From Hydrolagus colliei (taxonomy: Eukaryota): a stretch of 64,000 nt of DNA. The first letter of the stretch is position 1. Every line of letters begins with the position of its first letter. Made by a program: the position numbers and the translations under genes. The stretch covers positions 57,040,001 to 57,104,000 of the forward strand of contig CM068745.1 of the NCBI GenBank assembly GCA_035084275.1. Direction: 5' to 3'. Below the pieces are notes generated by a model. That model did no database searches. It saw only the letters and a list, made by a program, of their open reading frames with translations, and was not told where the DNA came from. This document shows positions 7,925-57,641 of the stretch, one piece after another.

Positions 7925-9260
7925 CGTAAATTTAGAACAAATCTATGCAGTGAGCATACAGTAAACCTGTGGAGCAGGTTCTCTAGGGAGACAGTTGAAG
8001 CAAAAAATGTTCATTCTTTGAAACACAGAATAGATCATTTTCTTTTAAGAAATAAAATTATGAGATATAGTACAAAGGTAGTTCGGGGTATATGTGCATG
8101 CAACCACCAGGAAGGTGGAAGGCTAACTGGATGGATCTTGGGGGTGAGGGTGGGTTTGTCTAGCATTTCTTAATGTTCTTATTACATTTTGTAGTAAATC
8201 CTATGAAGAGGTTTGAGACATGCTCTCAAAGTGAAATGTAGGATTATTATTTATTATTATTAATACATCTCCTTCTCCTGCTCTACGAGAATATAATAGA
8301 TAATGACTGTTCCATCCATGCTCTCCAAAACCCAAATTCTGTACTCTGAAATCTCTCCTAGCGTGATTATTATGAACTGTTCGCTAGCTGTAACAAATCT
8401 TTAGTTATGTGCTTGTATGAGAAATCCTATTATATATGTACCATGTTAAGTGCCTGCATCTGTTCAGCAGTACACGATAATCTCCTAGTCTCAATTCATT
8501 GGCTTCATTCTTTTTACTTAAGTATACACTTTTGATGTGTCTCCTTAGCTCAGGACATTCGCATAGATTTCTCTTTAAGAACTTCAACAAACTCAATTGA
8601 CTTTTTAAAAAAAGGCAATTTACTTTGTGTTGTGAGAGAAACCATTTCAGAAGCTTGACTAAATATTTATTTAGCAAAACCATTTGACAGACTGCTTCTG
8701 CTTGTACGGGAGGGTCACCATTTTGCTCAAATTAGTAAACAAAGGAATTTGGGGCCTATTTATATTTGAACCCTGCATGTTGAGATTGGTAAATGATATT
8801 GCACAGGGTTTGCCTGACATGTTATATAACATTCAAATTGATGAAAGTTTGCTTGTTACTAAAAGTAGTTCTGATTTACGATATACTCTGAATCCCATGA
8901 TGAGATACTTCTCTTGTAGTCACTGTCACGCACCGATTATTTTCTATTTATTCAGGGAAAATAAAAATGATGTTTTAAATGCATGACTGAATTGAATGCA
9001 TCATAGCCAACCACAATAAGATATGAGGAATTGCTCTGCTTATGTTGCTAACCATAATTCACTTGTGACTTTGTTACTCAGGAGTTATCCTGTCAGTTTC
9101 ATTTGTGGAGATGTTTATCAAATGTGATAAGCAGCCCTCCATAGTTTGTGGAAATAGAGTGTTTATACTTTTTGTGATTTTCTTTTTATCCAACCACATA
9201 TTTGAATCTATATTTTCAAATTTATATTGATAAATATCCACTTATATTAATACCATTTCT

Positions 9261-9737
9261 AATGGGGTCACAAACGCAGCCTGTGAAGTGTTAATTAACA
9301 TTGGTAATAATGATCACTGGTGCTAATCATTGTGTTATTCCAAGTTATGTCCTGTTAGTGCCTTAATTTATTGACTGCTCTGTTGATGTGATCCCCACCA
9401 TTACAGTCACATTGCTCAGGCAATACATCAGTCCATGGTCCTTGTTGTACTTGTCAGTCAAGGATCGTGGCATTGAAGTGGCAGTTATGGGAATATCAAT
9501 TCAATTAAAAAAAACTTTAGAGTTACTTTTCAGATATTACTAACTAGCACTTCAATTTGCAAGCCAGAAAATCCAATGGTAGCTAAATTTTGTGATCGGG
9601 TGAGTAATGGGTGGGTGGGTCAGCGTGTCCACCAGAGAGCAGTTTTTATAATACATTGACAAGGCATAATTTTCAACAATGTCATAATCATCACCAGTTA
9701 ATTAACACATCACAGGTTATGATGTTCACCCCAATGT
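9261..9737. repeat. Degenerate long inverted repeat, probable old MITE (second copy at 14005-14481)
   Basis: Arm atggggt...cctgtgaagtgttaattaac (9261-9330) pairs with gttaattaacacatcacagg...accccaatg (9668-9737). Confidence 0.55.
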
Positions 9738-11029
9738 ATAATTAAAAATGTGAATAATGATTTTACTGATAGGTTTGAGAGGCACACATGTGCCATTTCA
9801 GCATGGGACAGCAACTACCTATTGCATTTTCTTACATGAAAAAAATCTATTCTATCAAACCATACAGAGATGAGGTATCCTCACTGGCTTACTGCTGTTT
9901 GACAAACCTTTTAATTACAAGTGGTTTCAGAAGTTGGTCAAATATTGACTAATTTACAGACAGAAATAATTGGATATCCAAAGGGTAAGCTCAGAGCATC
10001 TCTGTGGAATTCAAATCAGAAACAGTAGATTGAGCAAATCCAGATTCAATCTGCTTGATCTATTTAGATTTGGACAAGATCTGCTAAAGTCAGGATATAT
10101 GGGGTCAATTTTCAGAAGATGCAGAAATGCCTGAAATGTTTCATTTGGTTTTAGATAGTATTTGAGGCAGATTTCTATATGTGATGAATTTTTGGTCTAT
10201 ATTCCTGACAGCTTCTAAGCCTTAAGACAAAAATAATTCTCACTTTATTTCTAGAGATGGGTCCACATGATTTACTCTTGTCTCCAAAAGCAATTTTTTT
10301 GTCAAATCGTAACCATGAGGGAAAATAGTTTAAGATTATATTAGCTTTTTAAACCAATCACAGGCATAAGTTGACTACAAAAGACTTCTAAACAGGTATG
10401 AGGGACTTTTAAACATCATCTTTGATACATTAGATGTTCTCATTCAATTGATCTATTGCATCTATTCAATTCTGTCTGATTTGTATTTTCTCATTATAAA
10501 AACAAATTGTCAAAGTTGGTACCAAGGGAAATATAACTAAGTTATGATTTTGTCAGCAATCCTTATACAGTATAAGTGTAATCACACAGCTCACAGAATG
10601 TATGTTTTATAACTGAATACATGTACTTTGTACCATAAGAGAATGCTGTTCATTTTCTGTATTGTATAACAATAATAGTAATAATGCTTGCATTTGATAC
10701 GTTGTCTTATTATGCTGTTGAGATGTCTCAAAGTAGTTTCATGGAATATAATGTAAATCACGTAATGTAAATAATGTTTCGCCCAATACATTGTCCCAGT
10801 GTCCCACAAACAGTCAAGGAGTGTTTTTTTTTATTTGGGTGATTCTTGGCAAGGGTACTGGAAAAAAAATATTTTCTCTTTTCAAATAATCCCAAGGGAT
10901 TTCTATCGTCCACTTGAACAAGAAAGTGGAACCTCTGTTTCAAATATCATCCAAAGTAATACACTGATAAAAACAATAATAAATTGGTCACTTCAATCCA
11001 GAAAGGACAGTGCCCAGGTTCCTGACTGA

Positions 11030-11400
11030 CTTGTAGTGTGCATCCTCAGATGCAGATGCTGTCAAAGCCTGAGGTGCAGAGTTGCTGGTGCCAGCCAATC
11101 AGGAGGGCCTCAGTATTGCTGACGTTCAGCTGCAGAAAGTTGTCTCTCATCCAGGACTTGATCCCTGACAACAGTTGTCCTGAAATCAAGGGTGGAGGCA
11201 GACATAGAGTTGGGTATTATCCGCGTATGCATAGAAATTGACCCATGATGTCACCAACGGGAAGCATTTAGATGTTGGAAAGGAGAGGGCCAAGGACATG
11301 GCCCTGGGATATGCCACACAGGATGATGGCTGAAAGAGAAACCATTAGCGGAGACAAATTGGAGATGGTGTGAAACATAAGACCTGAACCAGTCAAGGAT
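11030..11400 (-). mobile_element. L2 LINE RT fragment (also duplicated at +4744)
   Basis: GISQGHVLGPLL (variant of [12 protein letters not shown]), YADN and FLQLNVS remnants. Confidence 0.8.
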
Positions 11401-11485
11401 AGAACAACAACAACAAGAAAATTACACTTATATAGCACCTTTCTCAAGGCCTTTCCCAAGGGATGGGGTCAACAGCAACAAAATT

Positions 11486-11640
11486 AAACAAAAAATACTA
11501 CAGATGCTGGAAATCTGAAACAAAAACAGAAGTTGCTGGGAAAACTCGGCAGGTCAGGCAGTATCCATGGAGAAAGGAAAGTGAGTCAACGTTTCGGATC
11601 CATGACCCTTCGTCAGAACTGGAAAGTGGAACCTCTGTTT
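11486..11640 (-). mobile_element. Short Penelope-derived 3'/pLTR insertion with a hammerhead-like fold (duplicate at 16230-16384)
   Basis: Homologous to 33481-33618; perfect TSD cagcaacaaaatt(a) at 11473 and 11641. Confidence 0.85.
11584..11620 (-). ncRNA. Minimal type-I hammerhead ribozyme-like motif (duplicate at 16328-16364)
   Basis: Minus strand reads agtt CUGACGA A GGGUC aug GAUCC GAAA C GUU gacu: core boxes, stem II, short stem I and a palindromic loop-less stem III. Confidence 0.7.
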
Positions 11641-12057
11641 CAGCAACAAAATTACATTTATATAGCGCCTTTCACATCGGGAGGATGCCCCAAGGCACTG
11701 GAAGGGAACCAGATGGTGTGATGCATTGTCAATATGATGGTGATGAGGGAGGAGTGGGAGACAGGTTTGAAAATGTGGAAGGAGGAATGGGTAGACGGTC
11801 GAAGGTGGGGGTAGATGCGGAGGGATTGATGGTTGGGAGGGTAGAGGCAGCTGCACGGATTCCCTCGATATTAGACTTGAGGAATCCAGCATCCAGTTTC
11901 GCTCACAAATATACAATCAATTTATTTTTACAATATATTCTGTGAAGCACTTTCAGATGTATAGAATACACTTTCAGATGTATGTGAAAACAACTATATC
12001 AAATGCAAGGATTATTATTATTAATATAACAAGATTAGCAATGCTGAGTAATTCACA

Positions 12058-12260
12058 CCTAATAATAATCCCTAAAATAATACAATAATAAAATGGTCAT
12101 TTCAATCCACGACTGTTTGTGGGTACTGCTGTGCACAATTGGCTGCCGCGTTTCGCTCAAAATTCACAGTCAATTCACAGTATATTCTGAATATATTCTG
12201 TGAAGCGCATCTAGAAGATGTGAAAAATGCTATATCACATGCAAGGATTATTATTATTAT
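12058..12260 (+). mobile_element. 5'-truncated Deu-type SINE with L2-like tail (duplicate at ~16802-17004)
   Basis: ctgtttgtggg..ctgctgtgcacaattggctgccgcgtttcgc core; tail gcaaggattattattattat. Confidence 0.8.
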
Positions 12261-12671
12261 CCTATGAATGAACAAAATGGAATTTTAAAGGTGAATTTTC
12301 AGAATCAAATCACAAGATCACAAAAGAAGCGCAGATGAAGATATAGCTCTCTGGCCCTCTGTCTCTCTGTGTAATATATTGTTCTAACCCTATCATCTTC
12401 CAGTGAAAGCATTAAACTGCTTTCTAGATTAATCTAGGACATGGGAATTGTACTCAACGGTATTTAGAGAGACAAAGAAGGAGATTTGAGACTTAGTGAC
12501 AGATATTTTGAAGGAGTCAATTAACATTCAGGAGTTTGCAACAGACCGGATGGGAACAAGGAAATATGGTTCCCATATTTCTTTAAAAAAGGTGACAGAC
12601 CTAAATCTGAAAGCTGTAGATGGATTAGCTTGCCCTTTATGATTCAAAACGGAATGACATAAATCACTAGA

Positions 12672-15600
12672 AAATTTAGAACAAATCTATGCAGTGAGCA
12701 TACAGTAAACCTGTGGAGCAGGTTCTCTAGGGAGACAGTTGAAGCAAAAAATGTTCATTCTTTGAAACACAGAATAGATCATTTTCTTTTAAGAAATAAA
12801 ATTATGAGATATAGTACAAAGGTAGTTCGGGGTATATGTGCATGCAACCACCAGGAAGGTGGAAGGCTAACTGGATGGATCTTGGGGGTGAGGGTGGGTT
12901 TGTCTAGCATTTCTTAATGTTCTTATTACATTTTGTAGTAAATCCTATGAAGAGGTTTGAGACATGCTCTCAAAGTGAAATGTAGGATTATTATTTATTA
13001 TTATTAATACATCTCCTTCTCCTGCTCTACGAGAATATAATAGATAATGACTGTTCCATCCATGCTCTCCAAAACCCAAATTCTGTACTCTGAAATCTCT
13101 CCTAGCGTGATTATTATGAACTGTTCGCTAGCTGTAACAAATCTTTAGTTATGTGCTTGTATGAGAAATCCTATTATATATGTACCATGTTAAGTGCCTG
13201 CATCTGTTCAGCAGTACACGATAATCTCCTAGTCTCAATTCATTGGCTTCATTCTTTTTACTTAAGTATACACTTTTGATGTGTCTCCTTAGCTCAGGAC
13301 ATTCGCATAGATTTCTCTTTAAGAACTTCAACAAACTCAATTGACTTTTTAAAAAAAGGCAATTTACTTTGTGTTGTGAGAGAAACCATTTCAGAAGCTT
13401 GACTAAATATTTATTTAGCAAAACCATTTGACAGACTGCTTCTGCTTGTACGGGAGGGTCACCATTTTGCTCAAATTAGTAAACAAAGGAATTTGGGGCC
13501 TATTTATATTTGAACCCTGCATGTTGAGATTGGTAAATGATATTGCACAGGGTTTGCCTGACATGTTATATAACATTCAAATTGATGAAAGTTTGCTTGT
13601 TACTAAAAGTAGTTCTGATTTACGATATACTCTGAATCCCATGATGAGATACTTCTCTTGTAGTCACTGTCACGCACCGATTATTTTCTATTTATTCAGG
13701 GAAAATAAAAATGATGTTTTAAATGCATGACTGAATTGAATGCATCATAGCCAACCACAATAAGATATGAGGAATTGCTCTGCTTATGTTGCTAACCATA
13801 ATTCACTTGTGACTTTGTTACTCAGGAGTTATCCTGTCAGTTTCATTTGTGGAGATGTTTATCAAATGTGATAAGCAGCCCTCCATAGTTTGTGGAAATA
13901 GAGTGTTTATACTTTTTGTGATTTTCTTTTTATCCAACCACATATTTGAATCTATATTTTCAAATTTATATTGATAAATATCCACTTATATTAATACCAT
14001 TTCTAATGGGGTCACAAACGCAGCCTGTGAAGTGTTAATTAACATTGGTAATAATGATCACTGGTGCTAATCATTGTGTTATTCCAAGTTATGTCCTGTT
14101 AGTGCCTTAATTTATTGACTGCTCTGTTGATGTGATCCCCACCATTACAGTCACATTGCTCAGGCAATACATCAGTCCATGGTCCTTGTTGTACTTGTCA
14201 GTCAAGGATCGTGGCATTGAAGTGGCAGTTATGGGAATATCAATTCAATTAAAAAAAACTTTAGAGTTACTTTTCAGATATTACTAACTAGCACTTCAAT
14301 TTGCAAGCCAGAAAATCCAATGGTAGCTAAATTTTGTGATCGGGTGAGTAATGGGTGGGTGGGTCAGCGTGTCCACCAGAGAGCAGTTTTTATAATACAT
14401 TGACAAGGCATAATTTTCAACAATGTCATAATCATCACCAGTTAATTAACACATCACAGGTTATGATGTTCACCCCAATGTATAATTAAAAATGTGAATA
14501 ATGATTTTACTGATAGGTTTGAGAGGCACACATGTGCCATTTCAGCATGGGACAGCAACTACCTATTGCATTTTCTTACATGAAAAAAATCTATTCTATC
14601 AAACCATACAGAGATGAGGTATCCTCACTGGCTTACTGCTGTTTGACAAACCTTTTAATTACAAGTGGTTTCAGAAGTTGGTCAAATATTGACTAATTTA
14701 CAGACAGAAATAATTGGATATCCAAAGGGTAAGCTCAGAGCATCTCTGTGGAATTCAAATCAGAAACAGTAGATTGAGCAAATCCAGATTCAATCTGCTT
14801 GATCTATTTAGATTTGGACAAGATCTGCTAAAGTCAGGATATATGGGGTCAATTTTCAGAAGATGCAGAAATGCCTGAAATGTTTCATTTGGTTTTAGAT
14901 AGTATTTGAGGCAGATTTCTATATGTGATGAATTTTTGGTCTATATTCCTGACAGCTTCTAAGCCTTAAGACAAAAATAATTCTCACTTTATTTCTAGAG
15001 ATGGGTCCACATGATTTACTCTTGTCTCCAAAAGCAATTTTTTTGTCAAATCGTAACCATGAGGGAAAATAGTTTAAGATTATATTAGCTTTTTAAACCA
15101 ATCACAGGCATAAGTTGACTACAAAAGACTTCTAAACAGGTATGAGGGACTTTTAAACATCATCTTTGATACATTAGATGTTCTCATTCAATTGATCTAT
15201 TGCATCTATTCAATTCTGTCTGATTTGTATTTTCTCATTATAAAAACAAATTGTCAAAGTTGGTACCAAGGGAAATATAACTAAGTTATGATTTTGTCAG
15301 CAATCCTTATACAGTATAAGTGTAATCACACAGCTCACAGAATGTATGTTTTATAACTGAATACATGTACTTTGTACCATAAGAGAATGCTGTTCATTTT
15401 CTGTATTGTATAACAATAATAGTAATAATGCTTGCATTTGATACGTTGTCTTATTATGCTGTTGAGATGTCTCAAAGTAGTTTCATGGAATATAATGTAA
15501 ATCACGTAATGTAAATAATGTTTCGCCCAATACATTGTCCCAGTGTCCCACAAACAGTCAAGGAGTGTTTTTTTTTATTTGGGTGATTCTTGGCAAGGGT

Positions 15601-17415
15601 ACTGGAAAAAAAATATTTTCTCTTTTCAAATAATCCCAAGGGATTTCTATCGTCCACTTGAACAAGAAAGTGGAACCTCTGTTTCAAATATCATCCAAAG
15701 TAATACACTGATAAAAACAATAATAAATTGGTCACTTCAATCCAGAAAGGACAGTGCCCAGGTTCCTGACTGACTTGTAGTGTGCATCCTCAGATGCAGA
15801 TGCTGTCAAAGCCTGAGGTGCAGAGTTGCTGGTGCCAGCCAATCAGGAGGGCCTCAGTATTGCTGACGTTCAGCTGCAGAAAGTTGTCTCTCATCCAGGA
15901 CTTGATCCCTGACAACAGTTGTCCTGAAATCAAGGGTGGAGGCAGACATAGAGTTGGGTATTATCCGCGTATGCATAGAAATTGACCCATGATGTCACCA
16001 ACGGGAAGCATTTAGATGTTGGAAAGGAGAGGGCCAAGGACATGGCCCTGGGATATGCCACACAGGATGATGGCTGAAAGAGAAACCATTAGCGGAGACA
16101 AATTGGAGATGGTGTGAAACATAAGACCTGAACCAGTCAAGGATAGAACAACAACAACAAGAAAATTACACTTATATAGCACCTTTCTCAAGGCCTTTCC
16201 CAAGGGATGGGGTCAACAGCAACAAAATTAAACAAAAAATACTACAGATGCTGGAAATCTGAAACAAAAACAGAAGTTGCTGGGAAAACTCGGCAGGTCA
16301 GGCAGTATCCATGGAGAAAGGAAAGTGAGTCAACGTTTCGGATCCATGACCCTTCGTCAGAACTGGAAAGTGGAACCTCTGTTTCAGCAACAAAATTACA
16401 TTTATATAGCGCCTTTCACATCGGGAGGATGCCCCAAGGCACTGGAAGGGAACCAGATGGTGTGATGCATTGTCAATATGATGGTGATGAGGGAGGAGTG
16501 GGAGACAGGTTTGAAAATGTGGAAGGAGGAATGGGTAGACGGTCGAAGGTGGGGGTAGATGCGGAGGGATTGATGGTTGGGAGGGTAGAGGCAGCTGCAC
16601 GGATTCCCTCGATATTAGACTTGAGGAATCCAGCATCCAGTTTCGCTCACAAATATACAATCAATTTATTTTTACAATATATTCTGTGAAGCACTTTCAG
16701 ATGTATAGAATACACTTTCAGATGTATGTGAAAACAACTATATCAAATGCAAGGATTATTATTATTAATATAACAAGATTAGCAATGCTGAGTAATTCAC
16801 ACCTAATAATAATCCCTAAAATAATACAATAATAAAATGGTCATTTCAATCCACGACTGTTTGTGGGTACTGCTGTGCACAATTGGCTGCCGCGTTTCGC
16901 TCAAAATTCACAGTCAATTCACAGTATATTCTGAATATATTCTGTGAAGCGCATCTAGAAGATGTGAAAAATGCTATATCACATGCAAGGATTATTATTA
17001 TTATCCTATGAATGAACAAAATGGAATTTTAAAGGTGAATTTTCAGAATCAAATCACAAGATCACAAAAGAAGCGCAGATGAAGATATAGCTCTCTGGCC
17101 CTCTGTCTCTCTGTGTAATATATTGTTCTAACCCTATCATCTTCCAGTGAAAGCATTAAACTGCTTTCTAGATTAATCTAGGACATGGGAATTGTACTCA
17201 ACGGTATTTAGAGAGACAAAGAAGGAGATTTGAGACTTAGTGACAGATATTTTGAAGGAGTCAATTAACATTCAGGAGTTTGCAACAGACCGGATGGGAA
17301 CAAGGAAATATGGTTCCCATATTTCTTTAAAAAAGGTGACAGACCTAAATCTGAAAGCTGTAGATGGATTAGCTTGCCCTTTATGATTCAAAACGGAATG
17401 ACATAAATCACTAGA
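12672..17415 (+). repeat. 4,744-bp tandem duplication, copy 2
   Basis: Starts aaatttagaacaaatc, ends aaatcactaga, then unique sequence resumes. Confidence 0.97.
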
Positions 17416-17487
17416 AGCAAAATGGAGGAATGCCTGTAAGAAAGTGATCCAGAAGCCAACACTCTTTTGAAGGCCTTGATCTTACAT

Positions 17488-32652: not shown

Positions 32653-33007
32653 GGCTTGTTGAGGGGTGAGGCAGTGGCAGAGTTAGGCAATAATGCAGGG
32701 TTGGTGGAAGGTAGTGCTGGTCATGGCATGGATATGGGGGAAGAAAGGATAGTTGAGGGTTGAACAAGACACCCAGATTTCTGACTGGCCTGTTGAGGTG
32801 GAGTGTGCATCCGTGAATGCTAATGCTGCCAAGGCCTGAGGTGCGGAGATGCTGGCGTGAGTGAAACAGGAGGGCCTCGGTCTTGTTTATGTTCCGCTGT
32901 ATAAAGTTGTCTCTTATCCAGGACGATGTCTGATAGGCAGTTTGTCAGGACGCCAGTTGTCCTGGAATCGAGTGTAGAGGCTGTGTAGAGGCAACAAGAT
33001 AGATTTG

Positions 33008-33618
33008 CTCTGTATGGAAGGTCAACCCTGATCTTCCAGTCTCCCTCCATTTCAACTTGCGCTCACATTCAGAGGCTGATCTTTCGATCCATGATCTCCT
33101 GCGCTGTTCCAGTGACCCACAGCGAAAGCTTGAGGAACAGCACCTCATCTATCTACTGGGGACACTACAGCCGTCTGGCCTCAACATTGATTTCAGCCAT
33201 TTTAGGCCATAGGAGATTCCCCCCCATCACAATCATAACTCCAGACACCGCTTGCCTCTCTGGTGCTTTGTTTATTCTATCACCACTAAATACCTCTTCT
33301 CCCCAGTTTTGTTTAAATCCACCCCCTTCTGTTTCTCCCCCTGAGGTCATTAACACATATTCAACCCATCAGTTAACACACTCTTTTTTTTTTACCTTTT
33401 CCTTTGTCTTCTTTGTCTCCTTTGTCTTCCATGTCCTGCCTTTTAACGTCCTTAAGAAACCTTTCCTTCCAAACAAGCCCCAGTTCTGACGAAGGGTTGT
33501 AGACCCGAAACATTGACTCTTTTTCCTTTCTCCATGGATGCTGCCCGACCTGCTGAATTTCCCCAGCAGCTTTTGTTTTTGTTTCAGATTCCCAGCATCT
33601 GTAGTATTTTATGTTTTG
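33008..33618 (+). mobile_element. 5'-truncated Penelope-like element: GIY-YIG endonuclease C-terminus, 3' region and hammerhead-like motif
   Basis: 33009-33212 reads SVWKVNPDLPVSLHFNLRSHSEADLSIHDLLRCSSDPQRKLEEQHLIYLLGTLQPSGLNIDFSHFRP*; 12-bp TSD aagatagatttg at 32996-33007 and 33619-33630. Confidence 0.9.
33481..33519 (+). ncRNA. Hammerhead-like motif in the Penelope 3' region
   Basis: cagtt CUGACGA A GGGU uguag ACCC GAAA C AUU gacu; the G before UU appears CpG-decayed to A. Confidence 0.6.
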
Positions 33619-33686
33619 AAGATAGATTTGGGTGTCATCCGTGTACATGTGGAAATTTACCCCATGTCTATGGATGAGGTTACCAA

Positions 33687-36700: not shown

Positions 36701-37070
36701 AACATTATAGCTGGCTGGAAATTTTAGCTATTACCTCTGTATTAATTTTTATGCTCATAAATGTAAGGCAGTATATTTCTAAAACAGTGCAATTTCTACG
36801 TTATTGGAACATTGATCTTATACATTGCCAAAAAGAACTAAAGTGCTCAATTTTGCAATTCCATGACTAAAATTCTAATTGCATTGAGTTCACTAGAATT
36901 GTAACATGAACTAGTTACTCACTGAAATGTGTTTTGGAATGAGAATTTCCCAAATTCCATAGATAAGACCCTTGGTTGATAAAGTTTTCATGCCATTGCA
37001 TTGAATGCTTGTTGTCAGTGATTTGCAAATATTTAGCTATTCAATATTTGGAATATTCTGTGCATTTTTG

Positions 37071-38215
37071 TCAAGGGCCCCAAGCACTATTCCAGGTGAG
37101 ACAACGATTTACATGTACCTCCACTAATTTAGTATACTAGGAGTGCTGTAACTCAGTGGTTAGAGCACTTGCCTTACAAGCGAGAGACCTGGGTTTGATT
37201 CCCTGTAGTGCCATACCTTGGGAAAGTTTCCTTACTTGACACGCCCCTGATGAAAAAAAAATTGGTTATTTCAACCCACAACTGTTTGTGGGACACTGCT
37301 GCGTGCAATTGGCTAATGCATTTCGCCCACATATATACAGTCAATTCACTTTACAGTACATTCTGTGAAGCGCTTTGAGACGTTTAGAATATGTGAAATG
37401 CGCGATATCAAATGCAAGGATTATTATTATTATACACTGCATTTTCTGCTCACAATATCCCCTCTACATCAGGGACACCAAACGCAGATTGGGTGGTCAC
37501 TTTGGCAAACACCTCCATTCCGTCCGCCAATGCAACCCTGAGTTTCCGGTAGCTTACCACTTTAATTCTACTTCTCACTCCCACTGTAAGCTCTCTGTCC
37601 ATGGCTTCCTACACTGTTTCAACAAAGCACAGAGGAAAATCAAGGAACAGCACCTGATTTATATCCTAGGCACCTTACATTGATTTGAATCACTTCAGAC
37701 CTTAAACACAGCTCCCATCTTTTCTCAACCTTGCCTGCCATCTCATCCTCTTCTATAACCATTCACACATCCGCTGGGTCTCAGATACAGCATTTCTTTC
37801 TGTAATCGCCCACTGTTGTGTTCTTTTATCTTGCAACATCAATACCTCTGATCTCATCATCTACTGTCCTCCATTTTTTTCCCCATAATGAAATTTCAGT
37901 CAATAACTACTTCACATCACGCTCCTTGTAAACTCAATACAATAAATTATTATTTCATTCCCCCTTCTCTGCTGTTCCTTTTAAACTGCTCACTTCAGCA
38001 TTCCCCAGTTCTGCCATAGGTAATTTACCTGAAAAGTTAACTAATTTTAATAATAATAATACTTGCATTTGCATCTTCCAAACGTCTCAAAGCGCTTCAC
38101 AGAATATACTGTAAAGTGAATTGTATATTTGTTTTCCTCTCTCCATAGATGCTACCTGACCTGCTGAGTGTTCACAGCAACCTCTGTGTTTAGCATCTGC
38201 AGTACTTTGCCCTTC
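37071..38215 (+). mobile_element. Penelope-like element remnant (GIY-YIG endonuclease) with nested SINEs
   Basis: KGPK..FQVRQRFTCTSTNLVY // CIFCSQYPLYIRDTKRRLGGHFGKHLHSV..PVAYHFNS..EQHLIYILGTL; decayed hammerhead at ~38006-38042; 3' hairpin region gatgctacctgacctgctg...agcatctgcagt. Confidence 0.85.
37139..37433 (+). mobile_element. Full-length tRNA-derived Deu-type SINE with L2 tail
   Basis: A box taactcagtggttag, B box gggtttgattccc, central ctgtttgtgggacactgctgcgtgcaattggct, (TTA)n tail. Confidence 0.9.
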
Positions 38216-38409
38216 GTTTTAGAAAATGATGCAATTTAAAAAAATACCTTATTTGAAAAGTTATTCTATTTTTCATTCAATTGCATATCATGATCCTGTT
38301 GATTGTTGCTCATGCCATTGTTTAATCTCTTTACCTAGACATTAACCATTTCCTGTTTACATATTGATACTGATCAGTTCAAATCTGTCTTCTTATGATA
38401 AAATTAGGA

Positions 38410-42160: not shown

Positions 42161-43635
42161 TATCTATTCCATTACTGAAGTTGTTTCTCAGAATCCCGGC
42201 TTCCTTTTCAAGCTAAACATTTATTTTCATCTGAACAACTGTAACTCTGTGAAATCTGAGTTAATTCAAGACTCTCATAATTCACAATTACAGCTACCAT
42301 TCTCTGAGCACATCTCTTACACTTGTGGATATGATATAGAACTAACAGATTTAAATAATTATAACCCTTACATTGAATAGAGCGCCTTCCCTATTGGGAG
42401 GATGTCTGAACCACATACACAGCATTCAAGTGTCAGAGTAGACTTTATTAATTTCAGTTCCAATATGGAACTTGAACCAATATCCTTTTGATTCAGAGGT
42501 CATAGTGCTACCCAATGACCTATGCTGATAATATATACAATTCTCCACCTCTTTCCTTCTGCAGTCTGCAACTTTATTCAACAGAATCATATAACATAAT
42601 TCAGGTATCACGTTACCTTTACTTCCTTACGTATCTTTTCTCGCTCACTCGTTTCAACTTTGCTGTCTTGCACGCCTATGTTTCTAAATGAAAAAAATGT
42701 GTTCTGCATCATGCAACATTACTCAATTTCTGTGCTGCCCTGGAATGCTGATTCTGTACCCGAAGTATGGCAGAAATTAATTTGGGGCTAGAATTTGAAT
42801 ATTGTTGTATATTTTTATGGTGCTGAAAAGAATAACTAAAGCAGAAGCAACAAAAGACACAGCAGTGACCATTCCAGTGTACCATTGTGTAATAGAATCT
42901 GTCTGGGTATGTTGCATTTTCTTTGGAGTATTGCATTCTCTATTTCAAATTATCAGAGTGAATGCAACACAAGATGAGATACAAGCTGATTACAGGAATA
43001 TCTTCTCCGTATATATTGCATCCAAGTGCATCACTAGACATCTCCTGATGGGTAAAGAGAAACACAGTCTTACAAGTGGAATTTTGACACAGCAGTGCTC
43101 ACTTCTCTGGGGATTTTGTAAGAAAAACCATTGAATTACAGTGAAAAACTCTCATAATGAACTGTTATAATGTAATTCCCTCTCTAATAAAAAGTTTTGT
43201 CACACCAAATGTTGTTACAGTCTCGAAAGGCTTCTTTTATTGGAAAACTTTTTACATATTATCACATTTAATATGGTAAATAATATTTCATTACAAAAAT
43301 GATTTTTTCCCACCTCAAGTTTACTTGATTTGTTTTGAGTGACAATGATCATACCCTCGGGAAGGCACAAAACCCTGAATAATTAAGTCACATTTTATAT
43401 TGATATTCAATATTTTTTTAATTCATTTGTTTGTAGAATGGTTTCAGTATTCTAAATTAAGTAGAAAAGAACAAAATAGCATAATTGAAAGATGGGATTT
43501 ATCACTGAACAGATGGAAAAATCTATGTGGAACTGAAGAAACAAAAGAAGAGATTTTGTCGTAAATGACTGTTTCAAACAAGAATGAGAGTTAAGGATTC
43601 AATCAGTGCACTATAGGATTGAAAGCTATAGGCTG

Positions 43636-45288
43636 TGCTCATTGGACCCCATCCCCACCCCCCTCCTCCGCACCCAGCTCCATTTGTTAGCCCCACTCAT
43701 TTCTGACACCATTAACCTTTCCCTCTCCTCAGGAACTGTCCCTACCTCCCTTAAAACAGCCACCATCACCCCTATCCTGAAGAAACCCTCCCTTGATGCG
43801 TCGCAACCATCAAGTTATGGACCCATCTCCAACCTCCCGTTTCTATCCAAGGTCCTTGAAAGAGTGGTTGCCTCCCAGCTCCGCTCTTTCCTTTCAACTC
43901 ATTCACTTTTTGAACCCCTCCAATCAGGTTTCCGCCCTATCCACAGCACAGAAACTGCCCTGGTCAAGGTCACAAATGACATCCTAACCGCCTGTGACCA
44001 GGGCTCCCTCTGCCTCCTCGTCCTCCTTGACCTGTCTGCTGCGTTCGACACAGTCGATCACACCATCCTCCTTCAACGTCTTTCCTCCCACCTCAACCTT
44101 CAAGGCACAGTCCTTGACTGGTTACACTCTTATTTGACCCATCGTTTACATTTTGTTTCTTCCAATGGCTTTTCATCAAACCCCCGCACAGTTTCCCACG
44201 GCGTCCCTCAAGGCTCTGTCCTTGGTCCCCTTCTTTTCATCCTTTACACACTCCCTCTGGGCGACGTCATCCGCAAACATGGGGTAAATTTCCACATGTA
44301 TGCGGATGACACCCAGTTGTACCTTTCTGCCTCATCCCTCAACCCCCAGACGATCGATGTTCTGACAGCATGTCTGTCCGACATCGAATCGTGGACGAGG
44401 GACAACTTTTTGCAATTGAACGTGAGTAAGACCGAGGCCCTCCTGATTGGCTCAAGCCAGCGCCTCCGCACATCAGGCGCTGCCAGCCTCAACATCCAAG
44501 GCTGCACTCTCCACCTCACAAAGCCAATCAGGAACCTCGGCATCATGTTCGATCAAAAACTTTCCTTCCTCCCCCACAACCGCGCCTTGACCGGCACAGC
44601 CTATTTCCATCTGCGCAATATTGCCAGGCTCCGCAACTATCTCACCCCCCGCGCTGCCGAAACACTCGTGCACGCGTACATCACCTCACGGCTGGACTAC
44701 GGAAACTCTCTCCTAGTCGGCCTCCCCAGTTCCTCCATTCACAGGCTGCAGGTCATCCAAAACTCTGCAGCCCGTGTACTATCCCGCACCCGCCTCCATG
44801 ATCACATAACCCCCACCCTCGCCCGTCTCCACTGGCTCCCCATCCTCCAGAGGATCGAATTTAAGATCCTCGTCCTCACCTACAAGGCCTTACACGGCCT
44901 TGCCCCATCCTACCGATCTACTCTCCCCCTACACGCCCACCCGGACCCTCCGTTCAACAGGACTTGGCCTGCTCCAAGCTCCCCGCCCGAACCGCCCCAC
45001 CATCGGAGGCCGGGCCTTCAGTTTCTTCGCTCCCACCCTATGGAATGCCATCCCTCAATCCCTCCGTTTCGCCTCTTCCCTTTCCTCTTTCAAGGCCGGT
45101 TTGAAGACTTTCCTCTTCGATCGTGCCTTTTGTTTCACCCCGAACTCTTTTACCTCCCCTTCGTGTTTCACCCCTTCCCAAACACTCCCCTCCCAGCTTG
45201 GGTCACACGCCTCTTGTTTAGCGCCTTGGGACGTCCTCCCGACGTGAAAGGCGCTATATAAATGTAAATTGTTGTTGTTGTTGTTGTT
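43636..45288 (+). mobile_element. Young 5'-truncated L2 LINE containing the whole RT domain
   Basis: Long open frame with [47 protein letters not shown] and YADDTQ; single frameshift near 44915; stem-loop gcgcctt..acgtc/gacgt..aaggcgc plus (GTT)n. Confidence 0.97.
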
Positions 45289-52639: not shown

Positions 52640-54330
52640 TTGGATGGGGTAGAGATGGCTGAATGAATCCCCTCAATTTTGGATTTGAGGATGTCCAGCA
52701 TTTCCTCGCAGTTGGAATCAGAGGAGAGGTTTGGTGAGGTGTGGGAAGATGGATGGAGGAGACGGTTAGTGGTGGAGAAGAGAAGCCTAGGGCTATCCTT
52801 GGCCTCCAAGATTAACTTGGAGTAGAAGTAGGACTTAGCGGAGGCAAGGGCGAAGTGGTAGGTCATAGTATGATTTAGCCAAATCTGCCGATGGACCATT
52901 AGAAAGGATTTGATCCAGGCGAGTTCGGTAGCTCTCAGTTGTGCCTTGAGGGATTAGAGATGGCTGACTTACTAGGGGAATTAACAGTGTATAAAGCATT
53001 TCAGAAAGTGAGGGTGCAAGGAAGTCAAGTATGGAGGAGAGGGAGTTGTGGGGAAAAGAGAGTGAAGAGGGTCGATTGGTCTGTGAGGGCCTTAGAGACA
53101 GGAGTTCAGATAACTTGGAGAGGGAGAAGGAGGAGATTTTTTCCAGGGGTAAGATGTAGAGGTAAACAAAACACAAAATACTACAGATACGGAGAATCTG
53201 AAACAAAAAGAGGGCCCAGTCCTGACGAAGGGTTGTAGACCCGAAACGTTTACTCTTTTTTCTTTTCTCCATGGATACTGTTTGAACCTGCTGAGTTTCC
53301 CCAGCAACGTTTGTTTTTGTTTAAGATGCAGAGGTGTTCAGAGAAGAGGGAAAGGGAAGATGGGAGGGTGGATATGTCTGAGAGGAAGGTGGAGGATGGC
53401 TTTGAGGAACAGTAGACAAGGAGGATTTTGAGGGAAAGACTGGGGGTGTAAAGGGTAAGGTGCACAAAGTAGGAGAAGTAGCAGAAGTAAGCCAATCAGG
53501 AGGGCATCTGACTTGTTGACATTGAGCTGTAGGAAATTTGCCCCTTGTCCAGGACTCAGTGTCGGACAGACATGCAGTCAGAACGCCAGTAGTCCTGGAG
53601 TCAAGGGTGGACATGTATCTGAGCTGGGGACAGGTGGGAGGGAGGGAAGGTGGGTATTAGGAGTTGCCGATGGGACCATCGAGGAGCAGAGTCTTGAGGT
53701 GGGACTTGAAGGAGGCTAGGGAGGGAATGAGATGGAGGGACTGTGGGATGGAGTTCCAGAAGTTGGGGGCAGAGTGGCTAAAGGCTCGCCCGCCAATGGT
53801 GGGGTGGGTGAGGCGCGGGACGTGGAGCATACCTGAGCCTGCTGAGCGGAGGTGTGAGCAGGTTGGTAGGGGGTTAGAAGGTCACGGATGTAGGGTGGGA
53901 TGACGTTATGGAGGGTTTTAAATGTGAGGACCAGGATCTTGAAATGGATCCTCTGGATGATGGGGAGCCAATGGAGTTGGGTGAGGATGGAGGAGATGGG
54001 TTCATGGAGCTTGGAGTGATAGAGGTCAAGAGACACAGAGTTCTGGATCATCTGCAACCTGTGGAGGGAGGAATCGGGAAGGCCGACAAGCAGGGCATTT
54101 GCATAGTTGAGCCGGGATGTAATAAAGGCATGAATGAGGGTTCCAGTGGCCTTGGGGGTAAGGTAGTGGCGGAGTCTGGCAATATTCTGGAGATGAGGAG
54201 ACGCAGAGCGAGTCATTGCTTGGATGTGTGGGAGGAAAGACAGTTGAGGATCGAACAAGATGCCTGACTGGCTTCGTGAGGTTGAGTGAGCAATCATGGA
54301 GGTTGTTGCTGCCAGCGGCTGGCAGCACTA
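52640..54330 (-). mobile_element. Cluster of L2 fragments (ORF2 tether region, RT and 3' part)
   Basis: AKSYFYSKLI....PRLLF; LQNIARLRHYL..LHWLPIIQRIHFKILVLTFK. Confidence 0.85.
53164..53322. mobile_element. Short Penelope-derived insertion with internal inversion; hammerhead-like motif at 53218-53254 (+)
   Basis: TSD aagatgtagaggt / aagatgcagaggt; 53164-53209 is the reverse complement of the element's 3' end; CTGACGAAGGGTTGTAGACCCGAAACGTT. Confidence 0.85.
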
Positions 54331-56752: not shown

Positions 56753-57641
56753 TAGGGTCCATCGATATGGAAATTTTCCGATTTAGATATATCGATGGGC
56801 TCATATCGAGATATACCGATATATCGATATTTTCGGGGTTTTCGTACTGCACATGTGCGTGCGTCGCGAGGTGCACTCGCATTCGTGGCCAATCTCCTCA
56901 GGAAGTAAATATCTCTCTCTTTCTGTGTCTCTCACACTCACTCTCTCCATCTCTGTGTTTTTCTGTCTGTGTCTCTCTCCTCTCTCACATCCCCCCCATC
57001 TCTATCTATCTGTATATTATCACATCCACCCCGTCTCCACCCCCCCCCGTCTGTCCCCCCTCCGCCATCCGTCTCTCCCCCCCCGCCGCCGCTGTCCCTC
57101 TCTCCCCCACCCCCCTCGCCGCCATCCCCCTCTCCCCCCAACTCCCCACCGCCGTCCCTCTCTCCCCCTACCCCTCCCACTGCCGTCCCTCTCTCCCCCC
57201 CGCTGCCGTCCCTCTCTCTCCCCTCCCCCACCGCCGTCCCTCTCTCCCCCTACCCCTCCCGCTGCCGTCCCTCTCTCCCCCACGCCGCCGTCCCTCTCTC
57301 TCCCCCCCCACCGCCACCGTCCCTCTCTCTCCCCCCCCACCGCCGCCGTCCCTCTCTCCCCACCCCCCGCCGTCTCTCTACCCCCCCCCCCCCCCCACCC
57401 CTTGCAGACCTGTATATTGTATTCGAGGACTATGAATACAATATGGTGGCTTGCATCTCAGTCTGTGCATTGTGTATAGAGATGAGTATTCTGGGTCTTC
57501 TAGTTCAATGCATGCGCATTCCGATTTTTTCGATATATCGACTTTTTCGATATATCGATATTTTGAAAATGCCTATATCAGCATATCGATGTGAAAATTA
57601 TATCGAATATAACCGATATATCGATATATCGTCGGACCCTA
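56753..57641. mobile_element. Non-autonomous hAT DNA transposon, 889 bp
   Basis: TIRs TAGGGTCCATCGATAT / ATATCGTCGGACCCTA; perfect 8-bp TSD gtatatag (56745-52, 57642-49); many subterminal ATATCGAT motifs. Confidence 0.92.
57025..57400 (+). repeat. C-rich minisatellite (ccgccgtccctctctccccc units) inside the hAT element
   Basis: About ten degenerate units; explains the proline-rich spurious ORFs. Confidence 0.9.

Follow-up and report, generated by a model that had tools for sequence, protein, structure and literature searches.

A truncated, likely Neptune-type Penelope-like retroelement with a minimal hammerhead motif that is predicted to be inactive in this copy

The stretch of DNA analyzed here (the window, 64,000 nt) contains at 33008-33618 an element that, judged from its sequence, is a 5'-truncated Penelope-like retroelement (PLE), hereafter the focal copy. 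The features of the locus are as follows.

32663 to 32995, resuming after 33630, minus strand: older L2/CR1-type LINE that received the insertion (flank alignment; a YTDDTQIYL frame is readable)
32996 to 33007: left TSD, 12 nt, an exact match to 33619-33630
33008 to 33618, plus strand: 5'-truncated PLE insertion, likely Neptune (TSDs; end of the family match; flanks rejoin as LINE)
33009 to 33212, plus strand: last 67 codons of a GIY-YIG endonuclease and the stop at 33210-33212 (BLASTP to proteins P0078 and P0002; tblastn)
33213 to 33481, plus strand: pyrimidine-rich 3' UTR (sequence; region covered by family contigs)
33482 to 33518, plus strand: minimal type-I hammerhead (descriptor scan; local fold of a 49-mer)
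33482-85/33515-18, plus strand: helix I, 4 bp
33486-92, 33493 and 33507-09, plus strand: core CUGACGA, extra A and GAA (descriptor scan)
33494-98/33502-06, plus strand: helix II, 5 bp with a 3-nt loop
33510-13, plus strand: half of helix III, with U17 at 33514 (GAAA is followed by C-A-U-U)
33512, plus strand: A instead of G at position 16.2, likely CpG decay (G in the other window copies and in family reads)
33514/33515, plus strand: predicted cut (hammerhead descriptor and fold)
33585 to 33618, plus strand: optional PLE tail, 34 nt (also at 11487; at 53164-53321 on the inverted arm only)
33619 to 33630: right TSD, 12 nt, an exact match to 32996-33007

The first-pass annotation had proposed a TSD-bounded insertion in which the C-terminus of a GIY-YIG endonuclease is joined to a hammerhead, and this was borne out by the 12-nt TSD, the continuity of the empty site and the endonuclease homology. 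The TSD is an exact direct repeat, AAGATAGATTTG, whereas only 9 of 20000 random pairs of 40-nt windows placed 620 nt apart shared a 12-mer. When 33008-33618 was excised in silico, the two flanks gave one unbroken alignment, spanning the junction, with another copy of the host LINE at 44264-44648 (71.5% over 397 nt); the interrupted LINE had received the insertion in its RT catalytic motif. The best-kept copy of the receiving L2/CR1-type family has a stop-free RT frame of 557 codons at 43588-45261. Hundreds of contigs and reads of the PLE family cease to match at 33617-33618 and continue into unrelated sequence in four of four sequencing runs, which fixes the 3' end of the family at the right TSD. 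At 33570-33587, where the optional tail begins, a pyrimidine run followed by CAG looks like a 3' splice site; introns are known from Penelope pseudo-LTRs. The three TSDs of PLE copies in the window (32996, 11654 on the minus strand and 53150) are 12-14 nt long with AA on the element strand at, or within one letter of, each start, and each follows an element end rich in T, which may point to a target preference or to short microhomology.

Owing to its 5' truncation, the focal copy has neither the GIY-YIG catalytic motif nor the linker nor the RT, and the window contains no copy of the element that is full-length or in tandem. The product of 33009-33212 matched by BLASTP the C-terminus of P0078, an 813-aa protein with RT and GIY-YIG (43% over 63 aa), and that of the skate protein P0002 (57% over 65 aa). 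A Pfam search with the two window endonuclease fragments alone gave no match, and a word-index protein search with these fragments found none among longer proteins. Using a HMMER profile of the two fragments, we collected 844 proteins at E up to 0.001; among the named matches, skate, ray or whale shark accounted for five of the six best and seven of ten overall, and sea urchin for one of ten, which makes a cartilaginous fish the likely source of the window. Within the best 150 of the 844 matches, 20 of the 35 proteins that reach far enough upstream contain a CX2-6CxxC linker, which is also readable in several related loci. An RT is present in the relatives P0078, P0028 and P0032, and the second window copy (37057-38216) shows a YIGET-like motif. 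Craig et al. 2021 (PMC8557442) describe a CX2-5CxxC linker in Neptune and Nematis, and in the account of Li et al. 2026 (bioRxiv 10.64898/2026.07.22.740005) the vertebrate PLE clades are Neptune and Poseidon only; Nematis has the linker of Neptune but is not among the clades reported there for vertebrates. The linker in relatives and this vertebrate distribution together make Neptune the likely clade of the element, an assignment made through relatives; the window copies themselves stop short of linker and RT. One related locus (L008) carries the motif published for an Acropora element labelled Neptune.

Two further observations concern the homologs. Several annotated proteins of cartilaginous-fish type (P0025, P0116, P0002 and P0001; a neuromedin-U receptor model is an example) terminate in the endonuclease fragment of the family. 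These are probably gene-model artefacts, with exonisation a conceivable origin as well. Neptune-type loci (L081-L095) were also found in contigs of three bacterial MAGs of a prokaryote genome collection, 13 of the 15 in a single one, and likely represent animal host DNA binned there.

The hammerhead core of the focal copy begins 274 nt after the endonuclease stop, on the sense strand. The motif had been described as a minimal type-I hammerhead with a palindromic, loop-less helix III and with cleavage after GUU. This description fits the family and the intact sequence at 11616/16360, for which GUU is the right predicted site, but not the focal copy. Since 33512 is A, the triplet at this copy reads AUU instead of GUU (position 16.2 = A) and the palindromic helix III is broken. 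A homodimer of the focal copy keeps two of the four helix III pairs, its double hammerhead has a computed energy of −3.4 kcal/mol compared with −10.5 kcal/mol for the intact copy, and the focal copy is predicted to be inactive in self-cleavage. An AUG at 33534 was considered as an ORF start and rejected, as in most family reads its fifth codon is a stop (C33546T, among the differences listed).

The extra A had been presented as an oddity of the catalytic core. We found instead that it is an ordinary unpaired nucleotide at the base of helix II and no new catalytic feature. A nucleotide lying between position 9 and position 10.1 belongs to the consensus of metazoan PLE hammerheads, as do the G10.1-C11.1 pair and a palindromic 15.2-16.2 (Cervera & de la Peña 2014, PMC4209133). 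By our own count of Fig. S3 of that paper, the extra nucleotide is present in 54 of 56 rows (A in 30), including 10 of 10 jawed-vertebrate rows, and all 23 motifs of related loci described below carry extra nucleotide(s) here. The published family consensus thus rules out a new variant.

To search the window for further motifs, we used a strict descriptor that required the core, a stem II with 4 bp or more, and GAAA-NN-U-H. It gave exactly four sites, 33486 (+), 11616 (−), 16360 (−) and 53222 (+), all of which are family copies. The other copies and the features within them are listed here.

11487 to 11640, minus strand: short stub with hammerhead 11620-11584 and tail (14-nt TSD, 11473-11486/11641-11654)
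16231 to 16384, minus strand: same sequence as the 11487 stub, which an exact tandem duplication of 4745 nt carries twice; not a separate insertion
37057 to 38216, plus strand: older PLE copy of a diverged subfamily (endonuclease remnant 37057-37680; decayed hammerhead 38007-38042)
37142 to 37433: tRNA-derived SINE splitting the endonuclease remnant (tRNA-like head 37142-37213)
38048 to 38132: SINE 3' fragment just after the decayed hammerhead, within the older PLE copy
38132 to 38216: downstream PLE family sequence, within the older PLE copy
53164 to 53321, plus strand: fold-back stub (14-nt TSD with one mismatch, 53150-53163/53322-53335)
about 53164 to 53209, inverted: tail-bearing arm of the fold-back, with the 34-nt tail on this arm only
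up to 53321, plus strand: tail-less forward arm of the fold-back, with hammerhead 53218-53254 (2.1-1.1 pair lost)

The recurrences noted in the first pass at 11584, 16328 and 53218 are all real sites, but the first two are a single duplicated sequence (4745 nt, 100%); the decayed relative placed at about 38006 was found at 38007-38042. The CUGANGA and GAAA boxes with U16.1-H17 are present at all four non-decayed sites and not at 38011, and all four sites have the extra nucleotide between 9 and 10.1 and the G10.1-C11.1 pair. The palindromic 15.2-16.2 is kept in 11616, 16360, 53222 and the family reads, but not in the focal copy. The copy at 53222 has lost the 2.1-1.1 pair adjoining the cut site, which breaks helix I, and only the 11616/16360 sequence is structurally intact among the window hammerheads. 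At 38007-38042, helix I is kept and helix II is different, and the first core box and the palindrome are lost. The surrounding stretch, 37057-38216, has a nested history in which the older PLE copy was broken by a full SINE and by a SINE 3' fragment.

These scans bear on whether the motif could have arisen by chance, as a fit to a short, degenerate consensus in DNA full of repeats. A loose two-box pattern was not above chance in the window (19 found, 16.3 expected), as such a reading would have it. The strict descriptor, however, matches family copies only, and three of its four sites still pass when at least 1 bp of stem I is also required, compared with 0.027 per shuffled window (300 shuffles). 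With the strand-specific recurrence of the motif behind related endonucleases and the helix covariation reported below, this refutes a chance match, to which we assign next to no probability. An Rfam scan of the whole window returned no hammerhead family at E up to 5; because minimal motifs do not have the helices modelled in Rfam, this null result is no evidence against a hammerhead.

The stubs at 11487 and 16231 both lie within one exact tandem duplication, 7928-12672 = 12672-17416 (4745 nt, 100%), so the motifs at 11584 and 16328 are not independent and the reading of them as two insertions is ruled out; the window holds three independent hammerhead copies plus one decayed. The duplication starts 3 nt after a 25-nt G run, and it may be a very recent event or an assembly artefact. 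We considered whether the host has recruited the focal copy, or the duplicated intact pair, as a live ribozyme for cutting one of its own transcripts. The motifs at 11616 and 16360 are both intact and have the same sequence; they share a strand and are 4744 nt apart, which is about the natural spacing of tandem PLEs, and RNA reads from a related organism contain family sequence. Against co-option, helix III is broken in the focal copy and helix I in the 53222 copy, the perfectly identical duplication next to the G run may be artefactual, and no host gene was identified within the 64,000-nt window, without dedicated gene prediction. We regard such co-option as very improbable. A broader version, in which intact stubs are so numerous that a host pre-mRNA often carries two (as might 11616 and 16360), which pair into live double hammerheads that cut host RNA, is an equally long shot; if true, transposons would have seeded a layer of co-transcriptional cleavage of RNA in cartilaginous fish. 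The window is generally repeat-dense, with many LINE fragments and tRNA-derived SINEs, and a C-rich 29-nt minisatellite of about 12 copies lies at 57055-57396.

The stubs 11487-11640 and 53214-53321 both start a short way before the hammerhead core (only about 8-25 nt), and the summed contig depth of the family climbs about 7.5-fold at 33479. Transcription beginning just upstream of the ribozyme could account for these two features, as could subfamilies that differ in their UTRs. The motif and tail have a summed contig depth about 10-20 times that of the endonuclease, a ratio that is not a copy number; it would fit a family made up mostly of short stubs, or several subfamilies with only the 3' end in common.

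Differences in stem II between the copies had been taken as evidence of pairing, a claim that did not survive closer comparison. Stem II of the 53218 copy is identical to that of the 33486 copy, and when the three copies are compared as 5-bp stems, the only changes are one-sided, C-G to U.G (10.5-11.5) and G-C to G.U (10.3-11.3), rather than compensatory. This is the pattern that neutral deamination would give, so the window copies show no covariation, and the candidate was rejected. Double-sided changes (two, if the register is right) are found only in the 38006 copy, which belongs to the diverged subfamily and no longer has an intact first core box. Variation among the three window copies affects 0 of 14 core positions and 7 of 25 others (p = 0.03; small sample).

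Absent among these three copies, covariation is strong across related elements. Out of 95 related loci fetched, we used the 57 that have an endonuclease end and at least 150 nt downstream, and dropped 38. The motif occurs within 700 nt after the endonuclease on the sense strand in 23 of the 57 loci and on the antisense strand in none (0.04 in shuffles); the remaining 34 have no motif within this distance. All 23 carry extra nucleotide(s) after A9 (21 a single A, one a G and one two letters), 21 have G-C at 10.1-11.1, and 10 have a GUC triplet. Selection by the core boxes only gave 27 matches, all in sense orientation. Among these, the first four helix II pairs form in 104 of 108 cells with one nucleotide skipped and in 47 of 108 without the skip, and the middle of helix III is self-complementary in 25 of 27. 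With the set collapsed to 17 rows (16 plus the window copy), 127 of 136 helix cells pair, compared with a permuted mean of 77 and a maximum of 93, and there are several pair types per column; some rows are related to each other, several of them belonging to a single coral family, and this dependence inflates the permutation p-values, although the direction is clear. The related loci are 38-51% identical to the family among the rows listed. A search with the DNA motif just downstream of the hammerhead gave no match in metagenome or viral contigs, and the protein search gave no confirmed relative in viral contigs; the related loci are therefore distant invertebrate-type elements and not the PLE family of the window. 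L008 and L010 carry, without a single difference, the motifs published for Acropora (labelled Neptune) and Nematostella. From cnidarian-type elements to the family of the window, the core, the strand and the pairing have been conserved, which argues for lasting selection for the fold; on this comparative evidence, the lineage has kept a hammerhead fold.

A fold can be kept for reasons other than catalysis, and the motif might be a protein-binding or promoter element that resembles a hammerhead and never cleaves in this lineage. Besides the empty Rfam scan, the fold is weak: the double-hammerhead fold of the intact copy is about −10 kcal/mol, compared with a computed minimum of about −24 kcal/mol, and 91-nt stretches fold no better than shuffles. 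The triplet is GUU, not GUC as in the 10 related motifs, and published cleavage of such motifs is low (PMC4209133). Every conserved position nevertheless fits the catalytic core, covariation is seen in three helices, and helix III retains its palindrome; moreover, dimers and trimers of the Schistosoma motif cut weakly (PMC4209133), and the anole motif cuts when protein is present (PMC11167929). We thus consider a motif that never cleaves unlikely.

We hold with considerable confidence that the focal copy is a truncated, likely Neptune PLE copy whose parent RNA was likely cut after GUU through paired minimal hammerheads, probably aided by protein, with the copy itself predicted to lack activity. 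That the parent RNA cleaved itself is what we infer. The parent would have been transcribed from a tandem array, which would place two hammerheads on one RNA. The four-letter palindromes would then pair into helix III and allow slow cleavage after GUU, probably assisted by the element's own protein, so that multimeric RNA would be trimmed to units. For insertion, the element's endonuclease would nick the target with a 12-14-nt stagger, and the RT would begin at one of two start sites spaced by 34 nt, copy a 3' hammerhead that had not been cut, and then stop early; the focal copy would afterwards have decayed neutrally. Dimer cleavage of PLE hammerheads was reportedly described by Lünse et al. 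in 2017. No window copy records the end of a cleaved RNA, as each still has sequence from upstream of the cut. The one-sided tail and the inverted arm at 53164-53321 fit the published anatomy of PLE insertions.

The purpose of such cleavage is where another explanation departs from ours, and solely there. In this explanation, the hammerhead is a regulatory or parasitic passenger: rare, protein-bound cutting inactivates or trims transcripts, and insertion uses uncut RNA. In the anole Poseidon element, mutating the core abolishes cleavage while insertion in vitro persists, and RNA-seq is reported to show no ends at the cut position (PMC11167929); Naiads proliferate without canonical hammerheads (PMC8557442). 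All window copies likewise derive from RNA uncut at the site, and no pile-up of RNA starts or ends was seen at the cut site in two poly(A) single-cell runs of a related organism, a type of data in which 5'-OH ends are hardly visible. The conservation of core, strand and pairing from cnidarian-type elements, on the other hand, points to lasting selection for the fold. A passenger role is a real possibility, to which we give roughly one chance in three.

Cleavage of the parent RNA by paired hammerheads as a step of the element's own life cycle is the reading that we retain as likely. An essential role is argued against by the uncut window copies, by the missing pile-up of RNA ends (a weak test) and by an active dimer fold that differs from the computed minimum. 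The observation at this locus is real and was correctly recognized, and it is already explained by published PLE hammerheads. It extends the published association of Penelope elements with hammerheads to another vertebrate family, represented at 33008-33618 by a decayed fragment. We found no report of a shark PLE hammerhead in the literature searched; the supplement of Li et al., Repbase or Dfam may already contain the family. Being very abundant, the family could supply a genome-wide test of whether the cut site coincides with 5' truncation points or with RNA ends, whereas the locus at 33008-33618 makes the in vivo role of the PLE hammerhead no more testable than other PLE families do.

Among known systems, the minimal hammerhead of metazoan PLEs (Cervera & de la Peña 2014, PMC4209133), described there in Xena, Poseidon and Neptune elements of fishes, is shared in most respects. 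Common features are the type-I topology, CUGANGA with one extra nucleotide, G10.1-C11.1, a helix II of 5 bp, a helix I of 4 bp, a loop-less palindromic helix III, location on the sense strand in the 3' repeat, and mostly truncated single copies. Differences are the 3-nt loop of helix II and the decay of the focal copy, and none of the 56 rows of Fig. S3 nor Table S1 of that paper includes a cartilaginous fish. In the assays reported there, the monomer showed no cleavage, and dimers and trimers showed low cleavage. Hammerhead-bearing non-LTR retrozymes are reported in one chondrichthyan (Li et al. 2026, bioRxiv 10.64898/2026.07.22.740005), and these too are short PLE-derived sequences with a hammerhead. 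They form short tandem arrays, however, whereas the copies here are dispersed, each with its own TSD, and no tandem array over the motif was found in the window (periods up to 500); a retrozyme array is thereby ruled out.

Compared with the Neptune clade as described in PMC8557442, no difference was found. Both have a C-terminal GIY-YIG endonuclease, 5' truncation, inverted arms, a one-sided tail of 30-40 nt and a hammerhead in the 3' repeat; the RT and the CX2-5CxxC linker of that clade are seen here in relatives of the window copies. The Poseidon element of Anolis carolinensis (Frangieh et al. 2024, PMC11167929) belongs to another clade, and its ORF starts at helix II, whereas here an AUG 19 nt past the cut is closed by a stop as its fifth codon in most family reads (among the differences listed). 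The hammerhead of the Anolis element, the one PLE assayed together with its own protein, cuts only when that protein is added, cleavage is dispensable for insertion in vitro, and RT starts at two sites, which define the tail, on both strands. The two systems appear to have in common a hammerhead in the pseudo-LTR, two RT start sites with an optional tail, and priming on both strands, which is mirrored here by the fold-back at 53164-53321.
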